Origin: an uncultured Candidatus Saccharibacteria bacterium
GTDB lineage: Bacteria > Patescibacteriota > Minisyncoccia > Phycocordibacterales > GCA-2401445
Direction of reading: 5' to 3'
NCBI GenBank assembly: GCA_964436015.1
Contig: CAYTAR010000002.1
Coordinates: 9,521-73,520 of the forward strand
DNA: 64,000 bases
In this document: positions 3,169 to 62,209 of the stretch, one piece after another
Layout: the number at the start of each line of letters is the position of its first letter
Position numbering within the stretch: the first letter of the stretch is position 1
Notes under the pieces: generated by a model
Database searches by the model: none
What the model was told of the DNA's origin: nothing
Seen by the model: only the letters and a program-made list of their open reading frames with translations
Made by a program: the position numbers and the translations under genes

Positions 3169-4515
3169 ATGTCTGATCTAAAACAACTTTGGGATAATAC
3201 ACTCGGTCAAATAGAACTTGAAGTTTCAAAGGCAAATTTCAATACATGGTTTAAAAATACAGATATTATTAAGTTTGAGGATGGGGTAATTTACGCAAGT
3301 GTACCTAACCAGTTTGTAAAAGACTGGCTTTCAAACAAATATCACAAGTTTATTCTTAGAATTTTACGAACATTGTCTGATCAAGTTCGTTCACTTGAAT
3401 TTTTAGTTGTTCGTGATGAACAAAAGAAAAAAGAACTGCTCAATCAACGATTTGTTATGCACACCAATGAGCTACCCTTAAACGAGCTCTATATTAATAA
3501 AGATGATAATTTGAACCCACGGTATACATTTGAAACATTCGTGGTTGGTCCGTTTAATGAACTCGCATTTGCTGCCGCACAAGCGGTTATAAAAGAGCCC
3601 GGGATAGCGTATAACCCGCTTTTTATTTGTGGAAATACTGGATTAGGTAAAACACACCTTATGCAAGCGGTAGGGAACTATGTAAAAAACAGTGATAAAG
3701 ACAAGAAAGTCTACTATGTTACTTCTGAGCGATTTGCGCTTGATTATCTAAACGCACTTCAAAATAACAAAGCTACCGTATTCAAAGAAAAATATAGAAA
3801 GTATGACATTTTAATAATGGATGATATTCAGTTCCTTTCAAAAAAAGAAAAAACTCAGGAGGAATTATTCCATCTCTTTAATAGCCTCTACGACAACAAT
3901 AAACAAATTATATTTTCATCTGACAAGCACCCGAACTACTTACCAAATATGGAAGAGCGTCTCAAGTCACGCTTTAGTGCGGGAATGATTGTTGATATTC
4001 CCGAGCCTGACCACGAATCTCGCATGGCAATTTTGAGAGAAAAAGTTAAGGTAAGTAACATCTCACTTGAAAACGATATTATTGATTACCTCGCGCAGAG
4101 CGTAGAAGGGAATATTCGTGAACTTGAAGGAGTACTTAACTCTATTGTGTGCCAAACACGCCTAAAAGCTCGTGATCTCACATTAAATGAAATTAAAAAT
4201 CTAATAAAAGATACCGTAAAGCCAAGAAAGATTGTTTCTGTTAAGGATATAATAAAAACCATTAGTGATTTTTATAGTATTGATGAGGAGATTGTGTACA
4301 AAAAAACAAGAAAAAAAGAAGCTGTTCGTCCACGACAGATAATTATGTATATTCTTCGGGAAGATTTTCACGCTTCGTATCCTTCAATTGGACAGAAGAT
4401 AGGAGGGAGGGATCACACAACAGTTATTCACTCATGTGAAAAAATTAAAAATGAAATAAAGCATGATTCAGTTCTTGCGCAAGAAATTCACCAGATTCGA
4501 ACGATGTTGAGGTAA
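3169..4515 (+). CDS. dnaA: chromosomal replication initiator protein DnaA
   Basis: AAA+ Walker A (GNTGLGKTHL), Walker B (DDIQFL) and a C-terminal DnaA-box-binding HTH. Divergent from rpmH. Confidence 0.95.
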   Translation: MSDLKQLWDNTLGQIELEVSKANFNTWFKNTDIIKFEDGVIYASVPNQFVKDWLSNKYHKFILRILRTLSDQVRSLEFLVVRDEQKKKELLNQRFVMHTNELPLNELYINKDDNLNPRYTFETFVVGPFNELAFAAAQAVIKEPGIAYNPLFICGNTGLGKTHLMQAVGNYVKNSDKDKKVYYVTSERFALDYLNALQNNKATVFKEKYRKYDILIMDDIQFLSKKEKTQEELFHLFNSLYDNNKQIIFSSDKHPNYLPNMEERLKSRFSAGMIVDIPEPDHESRMAILREKVKVSNISLENDIIDYLAQSVEGNIRELEGVLNSIVCQTRLKARDLTLNEIKNLIKDTVKPRKIVSVKDIIKTISDFYSIDEEIVYKKTRKKEAVRPRQIIMYILREDFHASYPSIGQKIGGRDHTTVIHSCEKIKNEIKHDSVLAQEIHQIRTMLR

Positions 4516-4754: not shown

Positions 4755-5855
4755 ATGAAAGTTTCTTGCTCAAGAGAAAAAATAATAGACGCTGTATACA
4801 GAACTGAAAGAGCGACGGGTAAAAATTTATCACTTTCCGTACTTTCGTGTATTTTTATAGAAGCGAAAAAAGGTACTTTATTACTCCGTGCAACAAACTT
4901 AGATCTTGGTGTGGAAATATCAATACCTGCTAAAGTTGAATCAGAAGGAGTTGTTGCTGTTCTAGGAAATCTTTTTTCTCAAGTAGTTAATTCTGCAGTT
5001 AATACCGATACACTCCTTTTTGAGTTACAGGAAGGGGGATTAGTTATTACCTCTAAACACAGTGTTACTACTCTTACTACACAACCACACGAGGATTTTC
5101 CCACTATACCTCATATTACAGAAGAATTTTCTTCCTTTTCAGCACCAGCAAATCTTCTAGTTGAAGGGATGAAATCTGTTAATTTTTGTTCATCTAGTAC
5201 TACTATTAAGCCGGAACTTGGATCGGTATATATATATCAAGATTCGGGTGAGTTACTATTTGTGGCTACTGACTCCTTTAGGCTAGCTGAGAAAAAAATG
5301 AAGGTAGCAGTAGGAGAAGATATTAAACTACTTATTCCTAATAAAAATGTAATAGAGCTCATTCGTTTTCTTTCTGGAATTACTGATGATGTTGAGGTTC
5401 GGTATACAGAAAATCAAATTTCATTCTTACATAAAAATTATTATTTCACTTCTCGTGTAATAAATGGAACTTTTCCCGATTACCGACAAATAATTCCTAA
5501 AGAATATACCACCACGGTACGCTTACTCAAACAAGATTTTCTTGATTCACTCAAGAAAGCAAGCATTTTTTCTGGGAAATTTAATCAAATTAAAATAACT
5601 ATCAATCCAAAAGAAGGTTTATTTTCTATTGCAACCACTCAGGCAGATATTGGGGCACACACTGATGCTCTTACCGCTGAGACCACAGGTGAAGAGTTTG
5701 AAGCTCATTTTAATGAAAAGTATGTTTCAGATGTATTACCACACATTACGTTAGATTCGATTGAGCTTTCTTTTGCAGGGAAAGGACGTCCGTTGGTTAT
5801 TAAACCAATTCCACACGGTTCATTTTTGTATTTAGTAATGCCAATGAATAAGTAG
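4755..5855 (+). CDS. dnaN: DNA polymerase III beta sliding clamp
   Basis: 366 aa, three-domain clamp-like, immediately downstream of dnaA. Confidence 0.9.
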   Translation: MKVSCSREKIIDAVYRTERATGKNLSLSVLSCIFIEAKKGTLLLRATNLDLGVEISIPAKVESEGVVAVLGNLFSQVVNSAVNTDTLLFELQEGGLVITSKHSVTTLTTQPHEDFPTIPHITEEFSSFSAPANLLVEGMKSVNFCSSSTTIKPELGSVYIYQDSGELLFVATDSFRLAEKKMKVAVGEDIKLLIPNKNVIELIRFLSGITDDVEVRYTENQISFLHKNYYFTSRVINGTFPDYRQIIPKEYTTTVRLLKQDFLDSLKKASIFSGKFNQIKITINPKEGLFSIATTQADIGAHTDALTAETTGEEFEAHFNEKYVSDVLPHITLDSIELSFAGKGRPLVIKPIPHGSFLYLVMPMNK

Positions 5856-26079: not shown

Positions 26080-26157
26080 GAGGGTAGTATAGCATATATG
26101 GTATGTACTATACTATATACTACAAGGATTTTTGGAGAGTAATGCTATACTATTCAA

Positions 26158-26880: not shown

Positions 26881-26946
26881 AAAAACTAACCTGTAAAGAG
26901 TTTGGAGATCCGCATCATCTTGGGAGAATGGTTTGATTTTTTTATT

Positions 26947-26990: not shown

Positions 26991-28175
26991 TTATTGCATA
27001 CCTTTTAAAGCACAATCAAGACCAAGAATAATATCTTTAGGATCTTCAAATCCGACTGACAGGCGAAAAAAACCATCAGTTATTCCCAACGATTCCCGAA
27101 TATCTTTTGGAATACTCCTATGACTCATGAGCGGGGGATAGGCAATTATTGTTTCCGGACTCGCCAAGCTCTCACCGTATACAATGGGGCTGTTTTTTCG
27201 CAATAAGTCAACGAATTTTTTAAGTACACGGTTGTTTTTATTTTTAAGGATGAATGACACAACACCACCATACCCTCCTTTGCTTTGCCTTTGTGCCACA
27301 GCGTGATTTGGATGAAAAGAGAGTCCGGGATAGAGTACTTTTTCTATGTGATTATTTCTTTCTAAAAATGTTGCCACAGTGAGCGCTGTTTCACTTACTC
27401 GCTTCCAGCGTAATTCAAGCGTTTTTACTTCTTGGAGGACACGGTAGCATTCATCAGGTGAGAGGATTGCACCCAGTGTGCGGTGTAAAAAAACGAGTTG
27501 TGCATGAAGCTTTTTATTCCGAGTAATAATCGCTCCTCCAATAATATCGTTGTGACCGGCAATATATTTACTTAAGCTATGAATTACAGTTTCTGCTCCG
27601 AATTCAAACGATTGTAGTGCGCACGGTGGAGAAAATGTTGCATCAACCACGAATGGAATTCCCGTTTCTTTAGATACTTTTGCAACAAGCGATAGGTCAA
27701 TGACATGCAGTGATGGGTTTGTTGGGGTTTCCACAAAAAAATATTTTGTAGAAGGCGTAATGCTGTTATGGATAGATTCTTCAGTGCTGAAATCAACACA
27801 ATCAAAGGTTATCCTGAAGCGCGAAAAGTACTGATCGAGTAAGCGAAATGTTCCGCCATATACTTCTTGGCAACAGAGTACGTGGTCACCTGGTGCGAGT
27901 GTAGAAAAAAAGGCTGTTTCGGCTGCGAGTCCTGATGAGTAGACGGTTGCATTACCTCCTCCTTCCAATTGAACCAGTTTTTCTTCAAGTTTTTGTCGTG
28001 TTGGATTTTTCCCACGAGAATACTGGAATTCACTTTCAATACCAAACTCCTTTTGCGCAAATGTTTTTGTTCGCACCAGTATAGGCGCAACCGCACCAGT
28101 TTCTTTGTCAGGCTTCTCTCCGCTGTGGACTAGTTTTGTTGAAAAGGACCACTCTTTTTTGTATCTATTCTTCAT
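26991..28175 (-). CDS. Cys/Met-metabolism PLP-dependent enzyme (MetB/MetC/MetY family)
   Basis: PLP-lysine motif SLSKYIAGHNDIIGGA. It is preceded by a SAM-I riboswitch, which suggests a methionine-biosynthesis role. Confidence 0.8.
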   Translation of the reverse strand: MKNRYKKEWSFSTKLVHSGEKPDKETGAVAPILVRTKTFAQKEFGIESEFQYSRGKNPTRQKLEEKLVQLEGGGNATVYSSGLAAETAFFSTLAPGDHVLCCQEVYGGTFRLLDQYFSRFRITFDCVDFSTEESIHNSITPSTKYFFVETPTNPSLHVIDLSLVAKVSKETGIPFVVDATFSPPCALQSFEFGAETVIHSLSKYIAGHNDIIGGAIITRNKKLHAQLVFLHRTLGAILSPDECYRVLQEVKTLELRWKRVSETALTVATFLERNNHIEKVLYPGLSFHPNHAVAQRQSKGGYGGVVSFILKNKNNRVLKKFVDLLRKNSPIVYGESLASPETIIAYPPLMSHRSIPKDIRESLGITDGFFRLSVGFEDPKDIILGLDCALKGMQ

Positions 28176-28211
28176 AATTATCTTTTGTTTTTATGACTTA
28201 TAAAAACAAAA

Positions 28212-28352
28212 AGCTCTTCCGTAAAGAAGAGATTTTAAATCATATAGATATATTATCTTTCCCTTACGGGCTAGATTGAGCACTTACTTCTTACGAAGAG
28301 TTGCTGGCGGTTCATAGAGCTAGTTCTCTCCCCGCACTCTGGATAACTATTT
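28212..28352 (-). promoter_or_regulatory. SAM-I (S-box) riboswitch with terminator expression platform in the 5' leader of the Cys/Met PLP enzyme
   Basis: Minus strand reads TTATCCAGAGTGCGGGGAGAGAACTAGCTCTATGAACCGCCAGCAAC...GTGCTCAATCTAGC...AAAGATAA. Compare the S-box consensus TTATCAAGAGAGGTGGAGGGACTGGCCCGATGAAACCCGGCAACC...GGTGCCAATTCC...AAAGATGAG. Then CTCTTCtttacgGAAGAG + U-run. Confidence 0.7.
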
Positions 28353-28399
28353 TATTGTACAAAAAGTATACCAGTTTTTTATAAAAAGAAAAGAATCAC

Positions 28400-48506: not shown

Positions 48507-50447
48507 ATGATAATCGATAGACCAAAACAGCTGAAAACAGTAGAAGATGCTCTCACTATAAATATGAGAAGTTTTTCGGTGTATCGCATATTAAGTAATT
48601 CATTCAGAACAAGTTTTATGTATCGCGGGCTCGGGAGTCTTTTACTACTCTCGGTGTTAGCTCCCTCAGTGATTCCCGTTTTTGTATATGCTGACGAGAT
48701 ACCAGTAGCTACAGTAAGCACTTCAACCAAAGAGTCTATCGTGCAAGTGGACGTAGATCCTGTTGCTAAGGTTGATTCAAAAGCAGAAGAAACCATCGTT
48801 CCTGTAGATGATTCAGATGAAGGGGGTGTTGAGGAAAATGTGTCAGAAGAGAGTGGTGTTGAGATTAATGATTCTAGTATAGAACATGAGGAGATAGAAG
48901 AAGGTGATGTTAAGGAAAGTGTAATAGAGGAAGAAATCCAGCTGATAGAAATTGCAAGCTCAACGTTGTCTGTTGAGGATGTAAGTGCTACTAGTACCCC
49001 CGCAACCTCAACTCCAATAATAATGAATGAGGAGTCTCAAGTTGGTACTACTACAGTTAGTACTTCCACAACAACACTCGTAGCGAGTACAACAAAAAAT
49101 GAAATAGAAATTTCAGAGGATGAGGGAGTGGCAACAAGTTCTAATAAACTTACGGAAGAAGGTAATACTGCGGGCGCGAGCGGAACAAGCTCGCCCATGT
49201 TAACTGTTGATCCGGCAGACCTTATACCTCCTGATATTACTATTGTTGGCAATAACCCGGCGTTTGTGGCTGTTGGTGTGCAGTATGTTGATCAAGGAGT
49301 CCTTGTAAATGACAACAAAAGCAATAACTTGGGCCACACAATTCGTGTAAATGGTATAGAGGTTGATACGGTAACGCTTGATACAAGTACCACCAGTGAA
49401 TACGCAATAACTTATGTGGCGGTAGATCAAGATGGAAATACAGCAGTGGCAGTCCGAACGGTATTTGTTGGTATCGCAGAAAGTAGTATAGGGGAAGGCG
49501 TGTTAATGGAAAATGGTGTTGCGGGAGGAAGGGCTTCTTCAACTACAGATACCGTTGATGTGGTTTTTGAAGAAAACCATGATTTTGTACCCCAACAAAA
49601 TATTGAGTTTAATCTTTTGAATAAACATGTGTTTTCTGAATCTGATTGTGTGGTAGTGGGGAACGGTGAGTTTTACTGCGTAACCTCTGAGGATGCAAGA
49701 ACAAAGACAACAAACAACACTTCTCCAGTAGTGTTTGCAAAAAAATCAGACCAAGGGAATAAAGAAATATATTTCAATAATGGAGAATCACTTGTACAGA
49801 TCACTAACAATGACTTTGATGATGATCGACCCGTGTATGATGCAATTACTGGTATCATTGTGTGGCAATCACTCCGAGGCGATCGTTTGCAAATAGTATC
49901 CTACAATACCGTAACGGGAGTTGAGGTGGAGATTACTAATACTCCATATAACAACAGCAACCCTCATGTGCAGGGAACGACTGTGGTGTGGCAAGGGTGG
50001 GTAAATAATAACTGGGAAATATTTGTTGCTGATGCGACACGGAAAGCAGAAGACACTCTAGAGCCGGTAACGCGTAATGTGTGGAACGATATGTTTCCAC
50101 AGGTAAAGGGAGATATTGTCACCTGGCAGTCACGAGTAAATGATGCATGGAAAGTGTTTATCTATGATATCCGTACGAAAGAAATATCCGAGGTGGCTGT
50201 TCCTGCTGGGGGAAGTATTGAGAATCCCCGATTCGTTATTTTAGTTGAAAACAGACTTACGAATGGTGATGTAGAGACTTATGGGTATGACATTACTACG
50301 AAAGAAACATTTCCACTTGGTGCAGAGCGAAGGGCTACGCAAGAGATTCCAGAAAATCCGGCACAAACGGAGCCAACCGTGCTTCCTGTGGTGCAGGAGG
50401 TTAGAGCTCCGAAAGACGATGAGGGTGGAGTAGATGATACATTATGA
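48507..50447 (+). CDS. secreted surface protein with an acidic region, an Ig-like (DUF5011-type) domain and beta-propeller-like VxWQ repeats (signal peptide probably starts at nt 48618)
   Basis: MYRGLGSLLLLSVLAPSVIPVFVYA signal; DITIVGNNP...YVDQG Ig-like; repeated ...VVWQ...W.IF..D blades. Confidence 0.55.
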   Translation: MIIDRPKQLKTVEDALTINMRSFSVYRILSNSFRTSFMYRGLGSLLLLSVLAPSVIPVFVYADEIPVATVSTSTKESIVQVDVDPVAKVDSKAEETIVPVDDSDEGGVEENVSEESGVEINDSSIEHEEIEEGDVKESVIEEEIQLIEIASSTLSVEDVSATSTPATSTPIIMNEESQVGTTTVSTSTTTLVASTTKNEIEISEDEGVATSSNKLTEEGNTAGASGTSSPMLTVDPADLIPPDITIVGNNPAFVAVGVQYVDQGVLVNDNKSNNLGHTIRVNGIEVDTVTLDTSTTSEYAITYVAVDQDGNTAVAVRTVFVGIAESSIGEGVLMENGVAGGRASSTTDTVDVVFEENHDFVPQQNIEFNLLNKHVFSESDCVVVGNGEFYCVTSEDARTKTTNNTSPVVFAKKSDQGNKEIYFNNGESLVQITNNDFDDDRPVYDAITGIIVWQSLRGDRLQIVSYNTVTGVEVEITNTPYNNSNPHVQGTTVVWQGWVNNNWEIFVADATRKAEDTLEPVTRNVWNDMFPQVKGDIVTWQSRVNDAWKVFIYDIRTKEISEVAVPAGGSIENPRFVILVENRLTNGDVETYGYDITTKETFPLGAERRATQEIPENPAQTEPTVLPVVQEVRAPKDDEGGVDDTL

Positions 50448-53400
50448 CCCTACGCGCATTGAGAAGAATTTGGGTGAATAAAAAAAAATGGGGAGCACGC
50501 ACGGTGGCGGTTTTTATTGTGTTCACTTTTTTGTTTTCTGATATCTCACAGTTTATTCGTATACCATGGGGTACTATTTTCAGAGCTGAAGCTGCACCTG
50601 TTTTGATTGAGGATACACTCACCATAGTAGATGACTCCATGTTGAATACTTCACCCACAACCGTTTTTATCAGTGATACGGTTGGGTATACTTTTTTTGT
50701 AGATAATGGAAATGCGTGTAGGTATGCCTCAACAACAGATGCGGGGGCTACATGGAGTCTGGCATACACCGTTGACTCGGTTAATACGACAGATTGTTTT
50801 CGTGTCGCGGTGTGGTATGACCAATGGACTCCTGGAGATGATACCGGTACGGTGATACATATTGCAACTCTCGATACGGGCGATGATGATATTTTCTATA
50901 CATCACTTAATACCGTAACTAATCAACTTTCCACAACAGTGATCGCGACAAATCAGGCGGGTACATTTGCTGCGGGTACTAACTATCATTCAATTACGAA
51001 AGGTGGTGATGGAAACTTGTACATGGCTGCAAATGATGCATCGGACAGTTGGATAGTTCGGTGTACGGGCACCTGTACGAGTGCGGGTAATTGGTCAGAA
51101 ATTGCTAATCCGTACGAATTACAGAATGATTGGCCACTTCTTGTGCCGCTTTTGAATGGAAACATAATGACCATACGAATGGATTTATCAGGAAATGATT
51201 ATGACTATAACATTTGGAATGGTTCTATATGGAGTGGATGGACAACTATCTTAACAACCGCGGGTGAGAATGCAACTTTTGATGCTCATTTTGGGGCAAC
51301 GATAGATAAGAGAACAGGGGATGTGTACTTTGTTGGGGTAACTGATAATGCGACGTTGGGAACCGATGACGATATTCGTACCGCATACTACAACCACCAT
51401 AACGGTACGTGGAGTGTGATGGGTAATGTGCTTACTAATGATACAAAAGGTATACGAGACGCTAAAATATTTTTTGACCAGAATTCTGGAGATGTGTATG
51501 TTACCTATTCCGCACTCACCACTCCAAATAGTGCGACAACTGGTAATGTGTACTATAAATATTCAACTGACGGTATGGTTTCGTGGAGCAGTGAGGTACA
51601 GGTAAATACCGTCTCAGGCAACTTGTTTGGTGCGGGACACAATAACTTAATGAGTACTGAGCGTGCATATGTTACATGGAAAAACATATCGGGCGATGAT
51701 TTGTTTGGAGAGACTGTAGTTAATCTTTCTCCGCCTGCGCTTGAGCAGTACTCATATCGATGGTACGAATCTGCGACAAGTACTGCTCCAGGTGCACCTC
51801 TTGCAAATGCAAACACGACCGCAACGTCAACAGAGAGGGGTACGCCATTTCGTCTCCGTATCGCTCTCGATATAGACGATTCAAAAATTGCTTCCAGTTC
51901 TCTCTCTTTTAAACTTCAATATGCAGAGCGGAGTGGGATTTGCGATATTTCTTTTACCGGGGAAACGTACACTGATGTTCTTACTTCAAGTGGGGCAGTG
52001 AGATTTTATGATAATACTGGTGTTGCCTCTGGGGTACAAGCGACGGTGTCTGCGAACGAACCTATTCCGAGTGAAGGTTCTTTTTCTTACCAGTCATATA
52101 TTGAAGGTGGGACATTTACTAATACGTATGGAAGTATCGCAACGAGTAGCGACGGCCTATGGGATTTTTCTTTAATCGATATTTCTTCACCTGAAGAAAC
52201 CCGGTACTGCTTCAGAGTGGTGTATGCGGACGGTAGCACGCTTGAATCATACTCTGTAATTCCTGAACTTATTACCCCATCGCGTCCACCAATTGTTACT
52301 CAGGCGCATTTTCATTTCAGAAATGATAACGGAGGAGAGGATGATGCAACGTCAGCTACAGGAGGGGTTGAGGATACAAATCTTTTTGGTGTATTTCCAA
52401 CCACCACAATACGTATGCGTATTGGAGTTGAAAATAGAGGGTTAAGCACATCAAGTCCAATTCAGTATCGTCTTGAGTACGCGGAAAAAGGCGCGAGTTG
52501 TGAAGTAAGTACAGGCTGGACTGATGTTGGAAGTTCTGGAGGAGCTTTCAATATGAATCCAATTGCAAACTTAACAGAGGGAGGAGATACTACAGATATT
52601 GCGATTGCGTTAGGAGGTGTGAGTACTAATGAATCTTATTTCGTAAGTCCAAACGGTGGTGTTCGAGATACAAATTCACAGACCAGTGCCATAACGCTTG
52701 GTCCTGATGAGTATACTGACCTTGAGTATTCAATTACCGCGACAGGTGACTCAAATGAGGGAACAACATACTGTTTTAGGATAACCGATGCAGGGTCGGT
52801 GATTGATAGTTATAGTGTGTATCCACAGATAACTATGGCTGCTTCAGTAGAAGTATCAACTATCGGTAGTCAGGTGACATCAGTCAATGCAGGAACTAAT
52901 AATTTTTATGTGGGTGGAGCTTTTGTGATAACTGATGGAATAGGAGGGCATTCTGTTACGAGTATTACCATTGCCGAACAGGGAACCGTAGATGCTGGAA
53001 GTAATATAGAAAACATACGCTTATACTACGATCTTGATACGACATTTCCATATGATTGTAGTAGTGAGTCATATGGGGGAGGTGAGTTGCAGTATGGCGC
53101 CACAAGTACCAGTTTTTCCTCCGCAGATGGGACCGCAACTTTTAATGGGTCAGTAGGCATCGATACTGATCAGTCATTATGTTTGTATGTAGTGCTTGAT
53201 ATTGCGAGTGGAGCGAGTGACGGCGAGACTCTTGAAATAGAAATTCCAAATGCAAGTACTGATGTTGTGGTAAGTGATAATCCATCAATTTCACCAACTA
53301 CCTTTGTTCGTTTAGCGGATACAACAACCATAAATAGCTCTGTATTAGATATGACTCATTTCCATTTTAGAAATAATGACGGAGGGGAGGGTGATGCAAC

Positions 53401-56400
53401 GTCAGCTACAGGAGGAGTTGAGGATACGCCGGTGACTGATTTGAGAAAAAACACACCAATACGTCTAAGGTTGCAGGTCGCTAATAGCGGAGGAGTGGGG
53501 GCATCTTCCTTGGCACTTCGTCTTGAGTATGGGGTGAAGGTGAGTTCGTGTAGCGCGGTTTCTGTATGGCAAGATGTCGGTGCCACTGAGGGGGATTGGG
53601 ACATGTATGATTCAACATTTCTTACTGATGGAGACAATACTACGGATATCGTACTTGGTATTGGTGGGGTGAGTAATGAGGGGGTAGATTTTCTTGATGT
53701 GAATGGTGGGGTAAAGGATACTTCCTCTCAAACTGCTCCATTTACGTTGGCTCCAAATGAGTATGTAGAACTTGAGTATTCAGTGTTCGCAACTGCTAGT
53801 TCAACAGCAGAGGGTGAATACTGTTTTCGGGTAACGAACCAAGGCACTCCACTTAATGTGTATTCAGTGTATGCAGAAGTAAGTATTGCTCCAAATCAAG
53901 ATTTTTTCATACAACGCGGTTTTGAGATTGTGAGTGGTACCAGTACTATTTTATACGCGGGAATAGATTACACTCCGCCACGGTTGGGTGGTCGTGCGTT
54001 TGTACGTATCACTAATACGCATCACACAGGCGCAGGGGACGATGATGGGGGAGGAACTCAGAATGCTGATGATGTAACCGCGTACATACTGAATCCTCAG
54101 GATATCGCTACCAGTATTACCATTGCGCGACCAGCGGCAGCGACAATAAATACTGGAGTAGCGTGGGAAATAGTTGAGTATCAAGGCTACCCAGGTGGAG
54201 GTAATGAAATGGTCGTACGCGAACAGGGAAATATATCCATGACAGGTTTATTTGCTACCACATCACCAATAAGTGGGGTGAGTAGCGACAGTGATGTAGT
54301 CGTGTTTATTACTGGAGCAATGACTCCTGATACTGGTACCGCTGATTACAATATGATGCAGGCAGTATCATCGTGGGATGTTCAAAGTCAGAGTGCGGTG
54401 TTTGAGCGAGGTGAGTCAGGAGACACTATCACTCTCAGTTATGCGGTGGTTGAATTTACTGGAAGACATTGGCGTGTGCAACGAGTTGCGCATAATTACT
54501 CGTCTGCTGTTGGCGCAGAGACGGAGACAATACCCTCTTCACTTAACAGTGTTTCTCGTGCATTTTTGCATACTCAGAAACTTGCTGGTGTGGGTGAGCA
54601 GGGCCTGGACGAATTTGGGCATACGGTTTGGATTTCTGGGGTTAATGAAATTTCATTTCAATTACAAAGCGGTGTAACCACACCAACCGCACACCGCTCG
54701 GTTGCATGGGTGATTGAGAATACGCAAGTTAATGGAACTCCAATGAATGTAATACAGTCAAGCGGTACTCAAAGTGGAGGAGCGGAGCCCAGCGTTGCAT
54801 CAATTGATATTGGCACTACGGTGGTTAGTATGGATACAACTTCTGTATTTACTAATTCTCGAGTGAATGGCACAAATACTGCATTCCCAAGACCGATACT
54901 CGCCGTGTATTTAATTTCCCGTACACAGTATCAATTTTGGATTAGTGATACAGGTGGGACGGTAACCTATCAAACTGAGGTGGTTGAGTGGCCAACTGCG
55001 CCAAGAAAGATAACCCAAAACTATTACCGAATATACGTGAATCAAGACACACTACTTCCGTCTGATGTGTGGCCGCAAGGAGCATCATCAATCGGGGAAA
55101 ATACAGTACTTTCACTCAATGATGTGCCTATTGATAGTGGAGATGTTATTCGTATACGTATGTCGGTGTTGGTTGAACAGGGGAATTTACCGGTGAACTA
55201 TCAATCATTTCGTTTGCAGTTTGGTGAACGCGAAACAACATGTTCCGCGGTAAGTGTGTGGCGCGATGTAGGACAAGTGGGAAGCACAACTGCATTATGG
55301 CGCGGATACAATAACGGCAGCGTCACAGATGGGGCAACGCTCTCAAGCGATCCTCCAAATGGAGGAGATTTGGTACTATCAGTTTCTGATAGAGCTGGTA
55401 CGTATGAGGAGTCAAATAATTCCGCGGTGAATCCATTTCCGGTATTCGCGGGAGAAGATGTTGAGTATGATTGGGTTGTTGAAAATAATGGAGCTTTGGA
55501 ATTGACACCGTACTGTTTCCGTATGGTTGAAGCAAATGGTTTGATGCTTGATGACTACGCTTACCACCCAACAGTATTTACCGCTGGGTATGAGGCGGTG
55601 AGCGAAGACTGGCGTTGGTTTGATGATGCTGAAAATGAGACTCCTCTATCAGCTCTTTCTCCAGAAAATTCTGCACCTATTGGAGTAGACTATGATACTA
55701 CCGTACAGTTGAGAGTGTTACTACATGAAATTGCAGGAAAAACTGGACCTCAATTAAAACTCCGTCTTCAGTTTGATGAGTCGGCAAGTTTTACCAATCC
55801 GCAGTTCGTCTCGAATGCGCTTGATTGTGCAGAAGGACTATCTCTCTGGTGTTATGCAGACGGTGGAGGAGTTGATAATGCAACCATAACGACCGCAGTT
55901 TTGACCAATGCAGATTCGTGCGTATCTGAAGTTGGTGATGGATGCGGAACGCACAATGAGCTTGCTACAACGAGTAGTTTATTTACTCATCAACCCAATG
56001 CAAACACAGAGTTTGCGTTTACCATTCGACATGTAGGAGCGCGTGCGAATACAGTCTATTTCTTCAGGATATATGATGTAACCAATGATAGATATGTGAG
56101 TGCAAGCACTACAAAAACGTACCCAAGCTTAGTTACTGAGGGCGCTGGACTTACGTTTACATTAAGTGGTGTTTCTTCGGGTGTAATAACTGAAGGTATC
56201 ACCACTGATAATGCAACAACTCCATACCATATTTCATTTGGCACGCTTCCTTTAAATACGGAGGTTGAAGTGGCGCAACGCCTCACCGTCACCACTAACG
56301 CAACCGAAGGATACCAAGTATTTATGTTTGCAAGGCAAGGATTGTTGTATGATACGGAAGAAATTACTCCAATTACTTCACTTAACTCAAACCCTTTGGG

Positions 56401-56665
56401 GTGGTCTCTTGGGTGCGATACTGGTTCTGTAACTGGTTGTTTCGGATATCATACAGGAGACGATACTCTTGCAGGTGGGTCGGTTAGATTTTCAGCAGAC
56501 GATACGTACGCTCGTTTGACTACGTCACCCCAGGAGATTATTTACAGCTCGCGTCCGGTTATAAACGAATCAACTGACGTGATCTTTAAAACGTGGGTAA
56601 ATGCAGATCAGCCTGGAGGGCTTTATGAGAGTAGTGTGGTGTATATTATTGTCCCTGTATTTTAA
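50444..56665 (+). CDS. giant (2073 aa) Thr/Ser/Gly-rich cell-surface repeat protein
   Basis: N-terminal TM/signal, then at least four ~350-aa repeats each containing C...YCFR(V/I/M) and HFHFRN(D/N)(N/D)GGE(D/G)DATSATGGVEDT. Confidence 0.7.
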   Translation: MTLRALRRIWVNKKKWGARTVAVFIVFTFLFSDISQFIRIPWGTIFRAEAAPVLIEDTLTIVDDSMLNTSPTTVFISDTVGYTFFVDNGNACRYASTTDAGATWSLAYTVDSVNTTDCFRVAVWYDQWTPGDDTGTVIHIATLDTGDDDIFYTSLNTVTNQLSTTVIATNQAGTFAAGTNYHSITKGGDGNLYMAANDASDSWIVRCTGTCTSAGNWSEIANPYELQNDWPLLVPLLNGNIMTIRMDLSGNDYDYNIWNGSIWSGWTTILTTAGENATFDAHFGATIDKRTGDVYFVGVTDNATLGTDDDIRTAYYNHHNGTWSVMGNVLTNDTKGIRDAKIFFDQNSGDVYVTYSALTTPNSATTGNVYYKYSTDGMVSWSSEVQVNTVSGNLFGAGHNNLMSTERAYVTWKNISGDDLFGETVVNLSPPALEQYSYRWYESATSTAPGAPLANANTTATSTERGTPFRLRIALDIDDSKIASSSLSFKLQYAERSGICDISFTGETYTDVLTSSGAVRFYDNTGVASGVQATVSANEPIPSEGSFSYQSYIEGGTFTNTYGSIATSSDGLWDFSLIDISSPEETRYCFRVVYADGSTLESYSVIPELITPSRPPIVTQAHFHFRNDNGGEDDATSATGGVEDTNLFGVFPTTTIRMRIGVENRGLSTSSPIQYRLEYAEKGASCEVSTGWTDVGSSGGAFNMNPIANLTEGGDTTDIAIALGGVSTNESYFVSPNGGVRDTNSQTSAITLGPDEYTDLEYSITATGDSNEGTTYCFRITDAGSVIDSYSVYPQITMAASVEVSTIGSQVTSVNAGTNNFYVGGAFVITDGIGGHSVTSITIAEQGTVDAGSNIENIRLYYDLDTTFPYDCSSESYGGGELQYGATSTSFSSADGTATFNGSVGIDTDQSLCLYVVLDIASGASDGETLEIEIPNASTDVVVSDNPSISPTTFVRLADTTTINSSVLDMTHFHFRNNDGGEGDATSATGGVEDTPVTDLRKNTPIRLRLQVANSGGVGASSLALRLEYGVKVSSCSAVSVWQDVGATEGDWDMYDSTFLTDGDNTTDIVLGIGGVSNEGVDFLDVNGGVKDTSSQTAPFTLAPNEYVELEYSVFATASSTAEGEYCFRVTNQGTPLNVYSVYAEVSIAPNQDFFIQRGFEIVSGTSTILYAGIDYTPPRLGGRAFVRITNTHHTGAGDDDGGGTQNADDVTAYILNPQDIATSITIARPAAATINTGVAWEIVEYQGYPGGGNEMVVREQGNISMTGLFATTSPISGVSSDSDVVVFITGAMTPDTGTADYNMMQAVSSWDVQSQSAVFERGESGDTITLSYAVVEFTGRHWRVQRVAHNYSSAVGAETETIPSSLNSVSRAFLHTQKLAGVGEQGLDEFGHTVWISGVNEISFQLQSGVTTPTAHRSVAWVIENTQVNGTPMNVIQSSGTQSGGAEPSVASIDIGTTVVSMDTTSVFTNSRVNGTNTAFPRPILAVYLISRTQYQFWISDTGGTVTYQTEVVEWPTAPRKITQNYYRIYVNQDTLLPSDVWPQGASSIGENTVLSLNDVPIDSGDVIRIRMSVLVEQGNLPVNYQSFRLQFGERETTCSAVSVWRDVGQVGSTTALWRGYNNGSVTDGATLSSDPPNGGDLVLSVSDRAGTYEESNNSAVNPFPVFAGEDVEYDWVVENNGALELTPYCFRMVEANGLMLDDYAYHPTVFTAGYEAVSEDWRWFDDAENETPLSALSPENSAPIGVDYDTTVQLRVLLHEIAGKTGPQLKLRLQFDESASFTNPQFVSNALDCAEGLSLWCYADGGGVDNATITTAVLTNADSCVSEVGDGCGTHNELATTSSLFTHQPNANTEFAFTIRHVGARANTVYFFRIYDVTNDRYVSASTTKTYPSLVTEGAGLTFTLSGVSSGVITEGITTDNATTPYHISFGTLPLNTEVEVAQRLTVTTNATEGYQVFMFARQGLLYDTEEITPITSLNSNPLGWSLGCDTGSVTGCFGYHTGDDTLAGGSVRFSADDTYARLTTSPQEIIYSSRPVINESTDVIFKTWVNADQPGGLYESSVVYIIVPVF

Positions 56666-56673
56666 TACTATAT

Positions 56674-57690
56674 ATGTCTATTTGGTATACTAGAGGTATG
56701 AGATTATTTGTTCTAGGATTCATATGTTTTGTGAGTGCATTTTTTATTACGCCAGAAATTGCATTTGCAAAGTACATACAAGTATCACCTATTGTAATAA
56801 ATAAAGATTTGCAAGCTCGTGATATTATCCGTGAACAAGTGGTACTGAAGAACACCTCTCCTGCAAAGTTAAATGTGTATACATTTGTTAACAATGTTAC
56901 TTCTGGAACGGAGGGGGGTATTGAGGCATTTCTTGATTATCAACAATCAGAAAAACAAAAGTCGTTGGCAAACTGGATTGAGATTTCACGCGGAGTGATT
57001 GAATTGATGCCAGGAGAAGAAAAAGAAATTGAATTTATTATTAAAGTGCACCATGAGGCTACTCCAGGCGATTATCATGCATTGATTTCTTTCGGAACTG
57101 GAACCAATAGAGATGAGGCTGAACAGCGCCTTACACGAGAGTCATCGGTGATGGTTGTTGGGTCAGTAGTGAAAAATACAAGAGAGCTCCTTCAGGTGAA
57201 AAAATTTACCGCGGGGAATTTATTTTTTTCAGGAACTGATGCGGAGTTCACATACACCCTTCAGAATAATGGTGATGAGGTAATTATCCCTGATGGAGAA
57301 ATCTTGCTTTATGATAGGCGTGGAATTGAGATTGGTGCAATGCGCGTTAACGGACAGGGAGAGAGTATCTTGCCAGGGGAAGAAAAGGAGTTTGTTTCAA
57401 CATGGAGCGGTGAATATAGTCTCGGTCGGCACAAGGCGTACTTGAGTGCAGTGTATGGTGCACAGAAGAAAAACTTGACTGATACCACCTACTTTTTTAT
57501 GTTGCCATGGAAGCAGTTATTACTGTTGTTTACTGTACTTATGTTCTTTACGGTGTATGTTATGCATGTGATTCACGATAAATTTTTTCAAAAGAGAAAA
57601 AAACAGGTTCAATTCAACCGTGTATCTCGTCCAGTAACGCCTCCGGTCCCAGGGGTTGGTGTGATTAATCTCAAACAATATGAGGATTAA
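56674..57690 (+). CDS. cell-surface protein with signal peptide and C-terminal TM anchor (DUF916/DUF3324-like architecture), paralog 1
   Basis: Signal MRLFVLGFICFVSAFFITPEIAFA, a beta-rich ectodomain, and C-terminal TM LLLLFTVLMFFTVYVMHVI + KR tail. Confidence 0.55.
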   Translation: MSIWYTRGMRLFVLGFICFVSAFFITPEIAFAKYIQVSPIVINKDLQARDIIREQVVLKNTSPAKLNVYTFVNNVTSGTEGGIEAFLDYQQSEKQKSLANWIEISRGVIELMPGEEKEIEFIIKVHHEATPGDYHALISFGTGTNRDEAEQRLTRESSVMVVGSVVKNTRELLQVKKFTAGNLFFSGTDAEFTYTLQNNGDEVIIPDGEILLYDRRGIEIGAMRVNGQGESILPGEEKEFVSTWSGEYSLGRHKAYLSAVYGAQKKNLTDTTYFFMLPWKQLLLLFTVLMFFTVYVMHVIHDKFFQKRKKQVQFNRVSRPVTPPVPGVGVINLKQYED

Positions 57691-59365
57691 GTCGGCACAC
57701 AACAGTTGGTTTATAAGGGTAGGAATTGTATTAGTTTTAGTGTGTAGTATTGGATTTTTTTCTTCTTACACGCACGCCCAGGCACCCGCGTCGCTCTCAT
57801 TAAGTGTCACCCCTCCTTTGTTCCAACTCACTACTGCTCCAGGAGAGTATTGGGCGAGCAGTATAAAAGTCATCAATGCCAATTCATATCCATTAACCAT
57901 TGTTGCTGAAGTGGTTAGGTTTGATGCGAGTGGGGAAAGTGGTAATGCTAAATTTTTACCTGTACTTGGCACAGAAGGTGAAGGTAGCACACTTGCGGAT
58001 TGGATTACTCTAGAAGAAATTGAGTTAACTATTCCACCTGAGCAAAGTGCGGTAGTTCCATTTTCAGTACGTATACCACAGGACGCTCCTCCAGGAGGGC
58101 ACTATGCGGCGATACTCATTGGGAATAAATCTGTAAAAGAAGCGGGAGCAGGTCCGCAAGTCGGAGTGTCATCTTTTGTCTCCTCTTTGTTATTTGTTCG
58201 TATTGCGGGTGATGTTGTTGAAACAGGTTCTATTAGAGAATTTTCAGCAGATTCTCTTTTTTATCAAAAGCCAGAAACTTCTTTTTCATTACGGTTTGAA
58301 AATACAGGGAATGTTCACTTGTTGCCACAAGGTGAAATCACCATTTACAACATGTGGGGAAAGGAGAGAGGAGTAATTCCGATAAATCAAAAAACAGATT
58401 TTGGAAACGTACTTCCTCGGTCCATACGAAAATTTGATTTTACTTGGGCGGGGGAGCAAAATCCTCTTGAAGTAGGAAGGTTTTCAGCTGTAGCGATTCT
58501 TACCTATGGGCAGGAGGAAAGAAAAAGTGTGTATGCAAATACGTACTTTTGGGTGATACCCGTGATACCGGTGCTGATTGTCCTCGCTTCAATTTTTGGA
58601 ATTATTGTTTTTGTATCATGGATGGTTAAGTTGTATATCAGACGCGCTCTTGAGCTCCGAGGTATATACATGAATCCTGATGATTTTTTGTCTCCACATA
58701 TGAACACGTCAAAGGTGGATATGAAGATGCTGGTAAACCCTGTTGTGGAAGGAGTTATGGATTTACGTTCAGCTACTTTTCGTGATTCTCTTAGACATAA
58801 GAAAGATATTGTAGAGCCTGCCTCTATGACATATAAAGATTTCTTTAAGAAGTACAAGCGTTTCTTTGTGAGTGTGGCAGGACTCACAATGGTTGTGTTT
58901 ATTTTTATGTTTTTCTTTACTCACGTTCTCGTTCCCGAGCGTGCATTTGATATTACCTTGAATAAGGAAGATGGTGAGGTATCTATTAGTTCGGAGGAGC
59001 TCATTAAGGATAAGCTAGATGAGCAGAATAATTATTTTAATTCAAGTCAAGAAGAGGTTTCTTCTAATATTGCTTCTGGCGAGGTTCAAAGGATTACTAT
59101 TGAATTATTAAATAACACGGGAATTCCAGGCAGGGGTGCTGAGATTGCAGTACTACTTGAACAGAATGGATACAGGATTCAGAAGGTCGGTAATAGTAAT
59201 GAAGAAATGGAAGAAAATCGGGTGTACGGTAATTTTACTGATCCACTTATTGTAGAAGTCATTCAAGATGTTGAAAATATTACCGATAAAGTTTTTACGC
59301 AGATTGATTCAGGGTACACTCAAGGTCAAGCAACAAACACTCTTGTTTTTATTATTTCAAAGTAG
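57680..59365 (+). CDS. cell-surface protein, paralog 2 (ectodomain + TM + extra C-terminal domain)
   Basis: Paralogous to 56674 and 62210: LFVRIAGDVVETGSIREFSAD vs SMKIGGDVIETARIREFSSD. Has an internal TM VIPVIPVLIVLASIFGIIVFV. Confidence 0.55.
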   Translation: MRIKSAHNSWFIRVGIVLVLVCSIGFFSSYTHAQAPASLSLSVTPPLFQLTTAPGEYWASSIKVINANSYPLTIVAEVVRFDASGESGNAKFLPVLGTEGEGSTLADWITLEEIELTIPPEQSAVVPFSVRIPQDAPPGGHYAAILIGNKSVKEAGAGPQVGVSSFVSSLLFVRIAGDVVETGSIREFSADSLFYQKPETSFSLRFENTGNVHLLPQGEITIYNMWGKERGVIPINQKTDFGNVLPRSIRKFDFTWAGEQNPLEVGRFSAVAILTYGQEERKSVYANTYFWVIPVIPVLIVLASIFGIIVFVSWMVKLYIRRALELRGIYMNPDDFLSPHMNTSKVDMKMLVNPVVEGVMDLRSATFRDSLRHKKDIVEPASMTYKDFFKKYKRFFVSVAGLTMVVFIFMFFFTHVLVPERAFDITLNKEDGEVSISSEELIKDKLDEQNNYFNSSQEEVSSNIASGEVQRITIELLNNTGIPGRGAEIAVLLEQNGYRIQKVGNSNEEMEENRVYGNFTDPLIVEVIQDVENITDKVFTQIDSGYTQGQATNTLVFIISK

Positions 59366-59564
59366 GCTATCCACAAATAGTAGGGAGGGCATTTTAAAAT
59401 ATCAACTATAATTACAGTAAGGACCATGTCCTTTTCACCGCTTGGTGAATCGTGCCAGGATGTGTGTCCTATGACGTCGTAGGATAGAGAGGAATTTTTC
59501 CTCGGTATCTTATATTATCAGTAGGTAGTAGTGCCACCTACCGCTAGTTCTTAGAAAGCATTAT

Positions 59565-60704
59565 ATGAATAGCACATACGTATTTGAGCACATCAAGACC
59601 CATAAGTATCTAGCACTCATTGTGTTAGCGGGACTCTTAATGTGGTCAGTCGGCTTGCCTGCGTGGGCACCCATGGCGCAAGCAGCAGCACTCACCAACT
59701 TCAGTGATACACTCACTGATTCGGACGTGAGTGCACCATCTAATCACACGATTGCCTATACGACACCAAACGGTGTCTCGGCAGGAGAGACGATTGTGAT
59801 TACGTTTCCTGCAGGGTTTAACTTAAGTGATTTGTCGTTTAACGACATTGACTTATATGCAGGATCGGAACGAACACTTGGGTCTTCACCTTCAGGTGCA
59901 ACGTGGGGGGTTGCGACAACGTCAACCACTATTACGTTCACTTCAGGAACAGACACTATTGCGTCAAGTACTGCAGTCGTGATTGAGATAGGTACACATG
60001 CAACAGCTGGTGCAACGGGGGATACACAGATTATTAATCCAGGGTCACCTGGCACGCAAATTATCAACGTGTCATCGGGATCAGGAATTGATTCTGCGGA
60101 TACCCGCGTCTACATCATTGATGATGTTGTGGTCACTGCTTCAGTTAACACCACCTTCCTCTTCTCCATCACTGGAGTAGCGAGTGGTGCATCAGTTAAC
60201 GGAAGTCCAACAACCACTGCAGATACAACCACATCAACATCGCTTCCGTTCGGAACACTTAACGCGCTTCAGTCAAAAACTCTTGCGCAAGATCTTTCAG
60301 TAACCACTAACGCAGCAAACGGCTTCGTAGTAACAGTACAGCAAGATCAAAATCTTCGTTCCGCAACGAATGCAGATATTGATGGGTTCATTGATGGGGC
60401 GTATACAAACACTCCAGCTGCATGGGTACAACCATCAGGGTCCCTTGGACAAGAGTGGACATACGGTCACTGGGGTTTAACATCAGAAGATGCTGATTTA
60501 AACACTGATGAATTCGGATCCGATTTGTGGGTTGCAGCGTCAACTACACCTCGGCAAGTCTTCTCACACAATGCACCGTCAAATGGTACAACACCAAACA
60601 GTGGTTCTACCCGAGTCGGTTTCCAGATTGAAATTACTTCACTTCAGGAAGCTGGTACGGACTACACGAACACACTGACGTACATTGCAACGCCGACGTT
60701 CTAG
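59565..60704 (+). CDS. secreted surface protein, WxL-like C-terminal domain, paralog A
   Basis: Signal peptide. The C-terminal 201 aa are identical to those of the next gene. The end LTYIATPTF recalls the terminal motif of WxL domains. Confidence 0.55.
   Translation: MNSTYVFEHIKTHKYLALIVLAGLLMWSVGLPAWAPMAQAAALTNFSDTLTDSDVSAPSNHTIAYTTPNGVSAGETIVITFPAGFNLSDLSFNDIDLYAGSERTLGSSPSGATWGVATTSTTITFTSGTDTIASSTAVVIEIGTHATAGATGDTQIINPGSPGTQIINVSSGSGIDSADTRVYIIDDVVVTASVNTTFLFSITGVASGASVNGSPTTTADTTTSTSLPFGTLNALQSKTLAQDLSVTTNAANGFVVTVQQDQNLRSATNADIDGFIDGAYTNTPAAWVQPSGSLGQEWTYGHWGLTSEDADLNTDEFGSDLWVAASTTPRQVFSHNAPSNGTTPNSGSTRVGFQIEITSLQEAGTDYTNTLTYIATPTF
60101..60704 (+). repeat. 604-bp block identical to 61491-62094 (3' halves of adjacent paralogous surface-protein genes)
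   Basis: Spot checks at the start (tacccgcgtctacatcattgatgatgttgtgg), at 60121/61511 and at the end (...cgccgacgttctag) give a constant offset of 1390; no mismatch was seen, but not every base was compared. Confidence 0.9.
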
Positions 60705-60942
60705 ACGTACTTAGAGCACGCAAAAATCCGCTGTAAAGCGGATTTTTGTTTGTCTGAGACAGTGTGTCCTTGAAGTTAAGGTTGTCTTTTATGTTCGTTA
60801 TCCACAACCAGAAAAGAATTTTTGATAAAAGTCAATTATACTGTACATATTACTGGCGTGTGTCTTTTACACATAAGGTGAGTGGTTGTGAGACTGAGGG
60901 TCATCAGTAGCACATAGATTATCAAGTATATAGTTTATTAGT

Positions 60943-62094: not shown

Positions 62095-62121
62095 TGCGCT
62101 TATATACAAAACTATATACAA

Positions 62122-62155
62122 GAATTACACCCGCGAATGCGGGTGTAATTCTTTT
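62122..62155 (+). terminator. terminator after surface paralog B
   Basis: GAATTACACCCGCgaatGCGGGTGTAATTCTTTTG. Confidence 0.75.
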
Positions 62156-62209
62156 GCGAGGACTGAAGAGAGTGGTATTATTGATGTGTTACTAACCAAT
62201 ACTACGTTC

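Follow-up and report, generated by a model that had tools for sequence, protein, structure and literature searches.

A SAM-I riboswitch leader upstream of a Cys/Met-metabolism enzyme gene in a patescibacterial genome: a likely transcriptional OFF switch

Is the expression of a gene for a Cys/Met-metabolism pyridoxal phosphate (PLP) enzyme, located on the minus strand of a 64,000-nt stretch of contig CAYTAR010000002.1 (assembly GCA_964436015.1; the whole stretch is referred to below as the window), governed by S-adenosylmethionine (SAM), and if so, by what mechanism? An earlier note on this DNA had read the region upstream of the gene as a SAM-I riboswitch controlling a Cys/Met-family PLP enzyme. 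That core reading is supported by the score of the RF00162 match, by the covariation of the helices and the pseudoknot, by mutually exclusive antiterminator and terminator helices and by conservation before the orthologous gene in 33 leaders of the Candidate Phyla Radiation (CPR). Judged from sequence and predicted structure, the leader, of approximately 183 nt, is very probably a functional SAM-I riboswitch that acts as a transcriptional S-box OFF switch for the enzyme gene.

The SAM-I aptamer and its conservation

The whole window was compared with all 4227 Rfam families using cmscan, with clan competition applied. RF00162 (SAM-I) matched positions 28250-28349 of the minus strand with 64.1 bits (gathering score, 44.4; E value, 1.4e-12), and the alignment covered model positions 1-108 of 108, a result far beyond chance. 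The interval given in the earlier note, 28176-28399, does contain the riboswitch, but it corresponds to the whole intergenic region, while the aptamer accounts for only 100 nt of it. No other riboswitch was found above threshold in the 64-kb window, nor was anything credible seen at E values of 0.5 or less. The suggestion that riboswitches are sparse in this genome can be assessed only over the 64 kb, in which there is one. The gene and the principal parts of the aptamer are as follows.

26991-28175, minus strand: regulated gene, encoding a 394-aa Cys/Met-metabolism PLP enzyme of the cystathionine gamma-synthase (CGS), cystathionine beta-lyase (CBL) and cystathionine gamma-lyase (CGL) group, PF01053
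28250-28349, minus strand: SAM-I (S-box) aptamer, defined by the full-model RF00162 match and by covariation
28347-28342 with 28257-28252, minus strand: aptamer helix P1
Within the aptamer, minus strand: P4, CCC-GUAA-GGG, 3 bp with a GNRA loop
28323-28320 with 28274-28271, minus strand: pseudoknot between the P2 loop and J3/4, CUAG with CUAG, which fits the consensus by compensation

All of the sequence features named in the earlier note are present on the minus strand. The P1 strand UUAUC (28346-28342) pairs with GAUAA (28257-28253), the kink-turn region GGAGAGAACU...AUGAA and the CAGCAAC/GCAAC junction CAGCAACU are found in the leader, and the aptamer ends at its 3′ side with GGGAAAGAUAA. 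It is apparent from the cmscan alignment that every departure from the strongly conserved RF00162 consensus is offset by a change in the pairing partner. For example, GGAGGGA/GGCCC is replaced by GGAGAGA/AGCUC, CAACC/GGUG by CAACU/AGUG and, in the pseudoknot, cuGG/CCug by CUAG/CUAG.

Orthologous loci were compared, 19 from species-representative genomes and 31 from metagenomes; individual loci are identified below by L numbers. In 13 of the 19 genome loci a match to RF00162 that reaches the gathering score lies immediately upstream of the gene. At a 14th locus (L017) it lies upstream of an inserted gene, and two more gave full-length matches below threshold. A covariance model was built from the RF00162 hits at the genome loci. 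The aptamer was located by this model at 41 places, representing 34 distinct leaders, 33 of which (the window's own included) precede CPR orthologues of the gene. Flanking genes are not conserved beyond very close relatives, so that the riboswitch and the gene behave as a self-contained unit. Among the three loci cut by contig ends, L010 and L095 still show the terminator described below, while L085, with 142 nt of upstream sequence, shows none. The first 240 nt of L091 match L090 (1537-1720) only from the terminator U-run onward and are preceded by unrelated GC-rich sequence, which indicates a rearrangement or assembly breakpoint exactly at the terminator.

The four helices P1-P4 and the pseudoknot fit the consensus in the window, and all of them covary in the related leaders. 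Pairs were counted in a plain MAFFT alignment of 17 leaders on the structure derived from Rfam, pseudoknot included. They were formed in 92.8% of cells, as compared with 30-45% when the partners were slid; double-sided changes were present at 15 pairs, and the covariation score was reached by none of 500 shuffles. For 32 distinct sequences, 95.7% of cells were paired, 17 of 28 pairs showed compensatory changes and again none of 500 shuffles scored as high. This second alignment was fitted to the model and is biased towards the structure, but its result agrees with that of the unfitted 17-leader alignment. The pseudoknot is paired in 89.7% of cells, with double-sided changes at two of its four pairs; its variants include CUGA/UCAG in L015 and UGG/CCA in L011.

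The expression platform and the OFF-switch model

The elements outside the aptamer on which the proposed mechanism draws are listed here.

28365-28373, minus strand: likely promoter, an extended -10 element TGGTATACT, with a predicted transcription start near 28358
28350-28358, minus strand: A-rich 5′ leader ACAAUAAAA, which adjoins the 5′ side of P1 and reads ACAACAAAA in most relatives
28255-28269, minus strand: antiterminator 5′ strand CCGUAAGGGAAAGAU, made up of the loop and 3′ half of P4, of J4/1 and of the first part of the P1 3′ strand
28219-28233, minus strand: antiterminator 3′ strand AUCUCUUCUUUACGG, comprising the terminator 5′ arm, the loop and 2 nt of the 3′ arm
28202-28231, minus strand: intrinsic terminator, with the stem-loop CUCUUC(U)-UUAC-(G)GAAGAG at 28231-28214 and the U-run CUUUUUGUUUUU at 28213-28202

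The terminator contains the hairpin CUCUUC-uuuacg-GAAGAG that the earlier note had described. It does precede the ATG, but the distance of about 35 nt requires correction: the stem ends 38 nt, and the U-run 26 nt, upstream of the ATG. A terminator-like site was recovered independently by a consensus scan. With a strict script, a hairpin and U-run were found between the aptamer and the start codon in 27 of the 34 related leaders, the remainder having weaker hairpins in RNAfold. The terminator usually ends 25-35 nt upstream of the AUG in these leaders.

The competing helix was revealed when the 3′ portion of the aptamer was folded along with the sequence that follows it. A 14-bp helix is formed between CCGUAAGGGA.AGAU (28269-28255) and AUCU.CUUCUUUACGG (28233-28219). 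RNAfold predicts this antiterminator both when the 5′ part of the aptamer is omitted and as the minimum-free-energy fold of the full leader. The duplex has an energy of -16.0 kcal/mol, which was equalled by none of 300 shuffles, and the mean z score across 27 leaders is -2.6. Since the antiterminator consumes the P4/J4-1/P1 strand as well as an arm of the terminator, it is incompatible with the SAM-bound aptamer and with the terminator alike. In the GNRA loop of P4, the second nucleotide covaries with one in the terminator loop (CG in six leaders, AU in five, UA in three, UG in three and GC in one), and the antiterminator alone accounts for this covariation.

These elements suggest the following model. 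Transcription would start from the extended -10 promoter, approximately 9 nt ahead of P1. At high SAM levels the ligand would bind the four-way junction and lock P1 and P4; CCGUAAGGGAAAGAU would be kept from downstream pairing, the hairpin at 28231-28214 would form and, as we infer for the cell, RNA polymerase would terminate in the U-run at 28213-28202. When SAM is scarce, CCGUAAGGGAAAGAU would pair instead with the 5′ arm and loop of the terminator, allowing read-through and synthesis of the enzyme. The downstream gene nearest to the enzyme gene is convergent with it, and the enzyme gene is therefore monocistronic. As no Shine-Dalgarno (SD) sequence precedes the AUG, a platform of the classical SD-sequestering type is improbable.

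The predicted transcription start is in keeping with the arrangement of the related leaders. In 17 of the 33 leaders a TAnAnT hexamer, in most cases extended by TGn, ends 15-16 nt ahead of the aptamer; in 23 the distance is 14-18 nt. The same type of promoter motif precedes many other genes of the window. The promoter spacer sequence is not conserved among the 33 leaders, while the A-rich 5′ leader motif adjacent to it is kept in approximately 24 of them; ACAACAAAA-type motifs occupy the same position in L001, L002, L006, L008, L009, L019, L082-L084, L086, L090, L093 and others. Pairing of this 5′ leader with the terminator U-run was considered and set aside: in the window its energy is -2.5 kcal/mol, a value at least equalled by 157 of 300 shuffles, and the pairing stands out only in L014, L019 and L002. 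The sequence GATAAT, flagged by the consensus scan just before the ATG, was likewise rejected as a second promoter, its spacing being 1 nt, as compared with 6-8 nt at the leaderless-type genes of the window.

A different expression platform is used by a GC-richer subgroup of Parcubacteria (L011, L096, L097 and L101). Their terminator is rich in G-C pairs, and its 5′ arm contains CUUGAUAC, whose complement is formed by the P1 5′ strand together with J1/2 (-10.8 to -12.1 kcal/mol), so that the other strand of P1 is the switching strand. The sites are:

L011, 3699-3790: platform of the GC-richer Parcubacteria subgroup
L096, 2899-2982: the same
L097, 250-340: the same
L101, 2918-3000: the same

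Several observations weigh against a functional OFF switch at this gene. The terminator stem of the window is short and weak, with 6-7 bp, three G-C pairs and about -7.5 kcal/mol. In a fixed-column alignment, 83% of terminator cells were paired, as compared with 52-68% with the partners slid, and covariation was weak; the arms are low-complexity pyrimidine and purine runs, which accounts for that weakness, and per-sequence energies were therefore used for both terminator and antiterminator. The riboswitch is absent at eight related loci with enough upstream sequence. No NCBIfam equivalog cut-off was reached by the enzyme, whose subfamily is not fixed. Finally, the fold of the full leader without ligand buries the start codon, the probability of being unpaired at positions -12 to -1 being 0.03, as compared with 0.39 in the SAM-bound state. 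This predicted burial is left unexplained by a simple OFF-switch model.

An alternative is that the leader acts also, or mainly, after transcription. Two additional elements near the AUG would then couple the state of the aptamer to translation, processing or stability:

28182-28213, minus strand: hairpin 2, in which the terminator U-run CUUUUUGUUUUUAU pairs with the A-tract AUAAAAACAAAAG (28194-28182), 6 nt upstream of the AUG
28177-28185, minus strand: AAAGAUAAU, a copy of the P1 3′ strand (exact copy of 28260-28252), lying directly next to the AUG and complementary in sequence to the P1 5′ strand

Hairpin 2 is predicted in both free and aptamer-constrained folds, with a duplex energy in the window of -10.2 kcal/mol. 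Roughly half of the related leaders have it as well, with its G-C pairs kept in register (UUUUAUUUUG/CAAAAUAAAA in L014, two G-C pairs in L083). The P1 5′ strand finds its best partner, between the aptamer end and position +90, on the AUG in 10 of the 33 leaders, from at least five lineages and with covariation (CGUAUC/GAUAUG in L014, AUAGUUAU/AUAACUAU in the L009 group). In the window the pairing of AAAGAUAAU with that strand has an energy of -7.6 kcal/mol, with two of 300 shuffles as good, and the 9-mer concerned, AAAGATAAT, occurs only twice in the 64 kb, both times within the leader and 75 nt apart. It is also pertinent that the organism appears largely to lack SD sequences and leaders, an SD-like motif being present in only 6 of 54 window open reading frames (ORFs) of at least 120 aa.

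Set against these data, the helix between the P1 5′ strand and the AUG has the wrong sign for translational OFF control: it requires an open P1, and hence low SAM, yet it hides the AUG. Neither element is universal, and many leaders are no better than shuffles (for hairpin 2, shuffles were as good in 11 of 300 trials for the window, 2 of 300 for L006 and 3 of 300 for L014, and only some leaders beat their shuffles). L085, an orthologue without the riboswitch, also has an A-rich tract before its AUG, so that the tract may be a plain translation signal. Long-range A-U helices, moreover, are poorly predicted by thermodynamic folding. A second conserved layer on the S-box leader, linking the aptamer state to translation, 5′-end stability or processing, is accordingly regarded as unlikely on the basis of these folding models. 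If true, it would be more interesting than the riboswitch itself; we know of no dual-level platform of this kind for SAM-I. One further idea, that the terminator 3′ arm GGAAGAG is a hidden SD sequence brought to the AUG by hairpin 2, was rejected as evidence because the arm must be purine-rich in order to complement the GGGAAAGA of the aptamer and because the spacing it would imply differs among leaders, from about -3 to 11 nt.

Ligand, regulated enzyme and gene associations

With a transcriptional S-box OFF switch as the preferred reading, the identity of the ligand may be considered. The pocket nucleotides (the P1 A-U/U-A pairs, J1/2 AGAG, GCAAC and GUGC), which we take to be the SAM contacts from the solved SAM-I structure, all match the consensus in the window. 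J1/2 AGAG (A10 G11 A12 G13), GCAAC and GUGC (P3) are equal to the SAM-I consensus and invariant in the 17 leaders; the complete set of invariant positions is A6, U7, A10-G13, G46, A49, G67-C70, A94 and U95. At the level of sequence, P2 carries a kink-turn signature, G20 A21 opposite G37 A38, with A21 and G22 invariant and A38 nearly so.

A variant of the aptamer might sense something other than SAM, such as spermidine or S-adenosylhomocysteine. Rare specificity variants, among them those that sense spermidine, do exist and still score as SAM-I (PMC10853860), and the spermidine variants share with the window RNA the same fold and the same terminator/antiterminator platform. They are distinguished by an altered J1/2 and P3 internal loop and by their position before polyamine genes (PMC10853860). 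In the window, J1/2 and the P3 loop are those of SAM-I, a comparison made with the consensus and not with the exact variant nucleotides, and no polyamine genes were found among the genes annotated near the riboswitch. The genes associated with the RNA are instead Cys/Met/SAM genes, namely those of the Cys/Met PLP enzyme, metK and sat-cysC. A specificity variant of the spermidine type is disfavoured by these sequence features, and a change of ligand of any such kind seems very improbable.

The enzyme itself is a well-preserved member of its family. The PF01053 match has 378.6 bits and runs from residue 12 to residue 391 against profile positions 1-381. The PLP lysine lies in HSLSKY, which is aligned with HSATKY of solved enzymes, and the core motifs are intact. 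The top NCBIfam models are those of beta-lyase, gamma-synthase and gamma-lyase, at about half to two-thirds of their thresholds; the best CGS/CBL/CGL equivalog scores are 351 bits (cut-off, 627), 347 (513), 339 (642) and 336 (594). The nearest solved relatives, likewise of the CGL, CGS and CBL types, have nearly equal E values (1e-87 to 1e-80), so that none of these subfamilies can be assigned. Full-length PF01053 alignments were obtained with 6K1O (CGL), 4L0O (Helicobacter-type CGS), 7MCB (bifunctional CGL/homocysteine desulfhydrase) and 6CJA (CBL), at E values of 1e-87 to 1e-82. Conserved in these alignments are the PLP lysine, the tyrosine of YGG and the YSR...NPTR motifs.

A methionine gamma-lyase was considered and is disfavoured. 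The enzyme has YGG (VYGGTFR) in place of YGC and HR (LHRTLGAILSP) in place of KD, the position of the latter in the alignment being one that we take from the Pseudomonas putida sequence. Its score against TIGR01328, the methionine gamma-lyase model, is 292 bits, with a cut-off of 550. Both YGC and KD are treated as required in a screen for methionine gamma-lyases (PMC11568061). A methionine-degrading role is unlikely, given the absence of both motifs, and would also contradict an OFF switch.

Two operon variants place the enzyme in a metabolic context. At L017 (2137-5149) the riboswitch is followed by a gene for a bifunctional ATP sulfurylase/adenosine 5′-phosphosulfate kinase (Sat-CysC) and then by that of the PLP enzyme. 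At L015 (3815-8735) metK comes directly after the PLP gene, followed by genes for TspO, a HAD hydrolase and a 452-aa PF00291 PLP enzyme. From the logic of the riboswitch and the linkage to metK, the enzyme most likely feeds the methionine/SAM pool, on its supply side, producing homocysteine or methionine by a reaction of the gamma-synthase, beta-lyase or sulfhydrylase type. The role in methionine biosynthesis suggested in the earlier note is upheld to this extent: there is a tie to SAM/methionine supply, with metK co-transcribed at one locus, but the specific reaction is not given by a riboswitch. Given that CPR genomes are reduced, methionine may equally well be obtained by salvage or by a partial pathway as be synthesized de novo.

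The possibility that the leader is a decaying relic of a horizontally acquired gene, no longer regulating, could draw on the reduction of CPR genomes, on the unconserved gene neighbourhood and on the orthologues that have no riboswitch, but it is scarcely credible and appears to be excluded by the compensatory changes across diverged leaders, 33 of which retain the full aptamer, with terminator and antiterminator also retained at protein identities as low as about 57-60%. Of the non-CPR homologues sampled, the closest, from Clostridia (42% identity), have no SAM-I upstream, nor do the archaeal relatives, and recent co-transfer from the former is therefore not indicated. Outside the CPR, SAM-I was found upstream only at two Bacillales-type loci and at one unassigned metagenome locus with 40% identity.

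Host, significance and comparison with known systems

The host is placed among the Patescibacteria (CPR; Parcubacteria/Paceibacteria) on the evidence of its relatives. The enzyme has close homologues (57-82% identity) in metagenome-assembled genomes labelled Paceibacterota, Taylorbacteria, Parcubacteria or Patescibacteria, the Taylorbacteria belonging to the Patescibacteria/Parcubacteria group. One Taylorbacteria contig (L010, 2271-2628) also contains a full-length group I intron match below threshold (40.2 bits; gathering score, 50; E value, 4.7e-7).

Upstream of the leader, and on the same strand, are genes for a DUF1801 protein and a SAM-dependent methyltransferase. Elsewhere in the window there are genes for DnaA, DnaN, a class A penicillin-binding protein, tyrosyl-tRNA synthetase, RuvAB, PilB, PolA and PilM/N-like proteins. 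The positions of dnaA (3169-4515) and dnaN (4755-5855), together with a GC skew of -0.17 over the first 2 kb that then rises to zero or positive values, suggest a replication origin near 2-3 kb of the window. A 2073-aa ORF at 50444-56665 on the plus strand is followed on that strand by ORFs of 338-561 aa (56674-63289); no Pfam match at E values of 1e-5 or less was obtained for the five of these following ORFs that were scanned.

The hexamer TAnAnT ends 4-9 nt before the ATG in 17 of the 54 ORFs mentioned above, with a sharp peak at 6 nt and with TGn in eight cases. Examples of such -10-like regions are:

26881-26896: -10-like region upstream of an ATG
26080-26095: -10-like region upstream of an ATG
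33319-33335: -10-like region upstream of an ATG

From these hexamers and the scarcity of SD-like motifs, many or most genes of the window look leaderless, and a long riboswitch leader without an SD sequence is therefore exceptional among them. A literature search returned no paper describing leaderless genes in Patescibacteria.

Control of PF01053 enzymes by SAM-I is classic. The class itself is among the most widespread of riboswitches (PMC5473149). A search of a library of papers returned no report of natural riboswitches in Patescibacteria, and the Rfam full alignment may already list such sequences. Both the RNA class and its logic are ordinary; the mild surprise is their conservation in ultra-small Patescibacteria, whose genes are mostly leaderless. 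In 33 distinct leaders, a lineage whose metabolism is minimal has retained feedback control by SAM over a single transsulfuration-type enzyme, and this marks the enzyme out as a genuine node in the methionine/SAM supply of Parcubacteria. Combined with the operon variants that carry metK and sat-cysC, it provides a lead on how Parcubacteria cells obtain methionine. The sequences further suggest that a natural ligand-responsive switch is compatible with the CPR transcription machinery. A recent perspective regards riboswitches as a promising means of making expression inducible in Patescibacteria (PMC11665869).

The known systems nearest to this one are the S-box leaders of Bacillus subtilis met genes such as metI-metC (yjcI-yjcJ), yitJ and metK and the SAM-I aptamer of Thermoanaerobacter tengcongensis, whose structure has been solved. 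The window RNA resembles them in its four-way junction with P1-P4, in the sequence signature of a kink-turn in P2, in its pseudoknot between the P2 loop and J3/4 and in the consensus pocket nucleotides of J1/2, GCAAC and GUGC. It also shares with them its predicted OFF logic, in which the 3′ part of the aptamer serves as an antiterminator opposed to an intrinsic terminator, and the control of a PF01053 transsulfuration-type enzyme.

There are also clear differences. The host belongs to the Patescibacteria/CPR; P4 is minimal, with 3 bp and a GNRA loop; and the pseudoknot, in contrast to the S-box consensus, is not G-C-rich but a palindrome, CUAG/CUAG, compensated on both sides. The leader has no SD sequence before its AUG, and it carries additional elements, namely hairpin 2, the copy of the P1 3′ strand at the start codon and the 5′ leader motif ACAACAAAA. 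The gene stands alone, whereas metI and metC are paired.

Finally, the SAM-binding core of the window RNA is shared with SAM-IV (RF00634) and SAM-I/IV (RF01725) of clan CL00012, which are types of one general class with SAM-I (McCown et al. 2017, PMC5473149). As compared with these relatives, SAM-I is the best and only reported clan match and covers the full model, and the window RNA has the P4 and the pseudoknot between the P2 loop and J3/4 that are of the SAM-I type.

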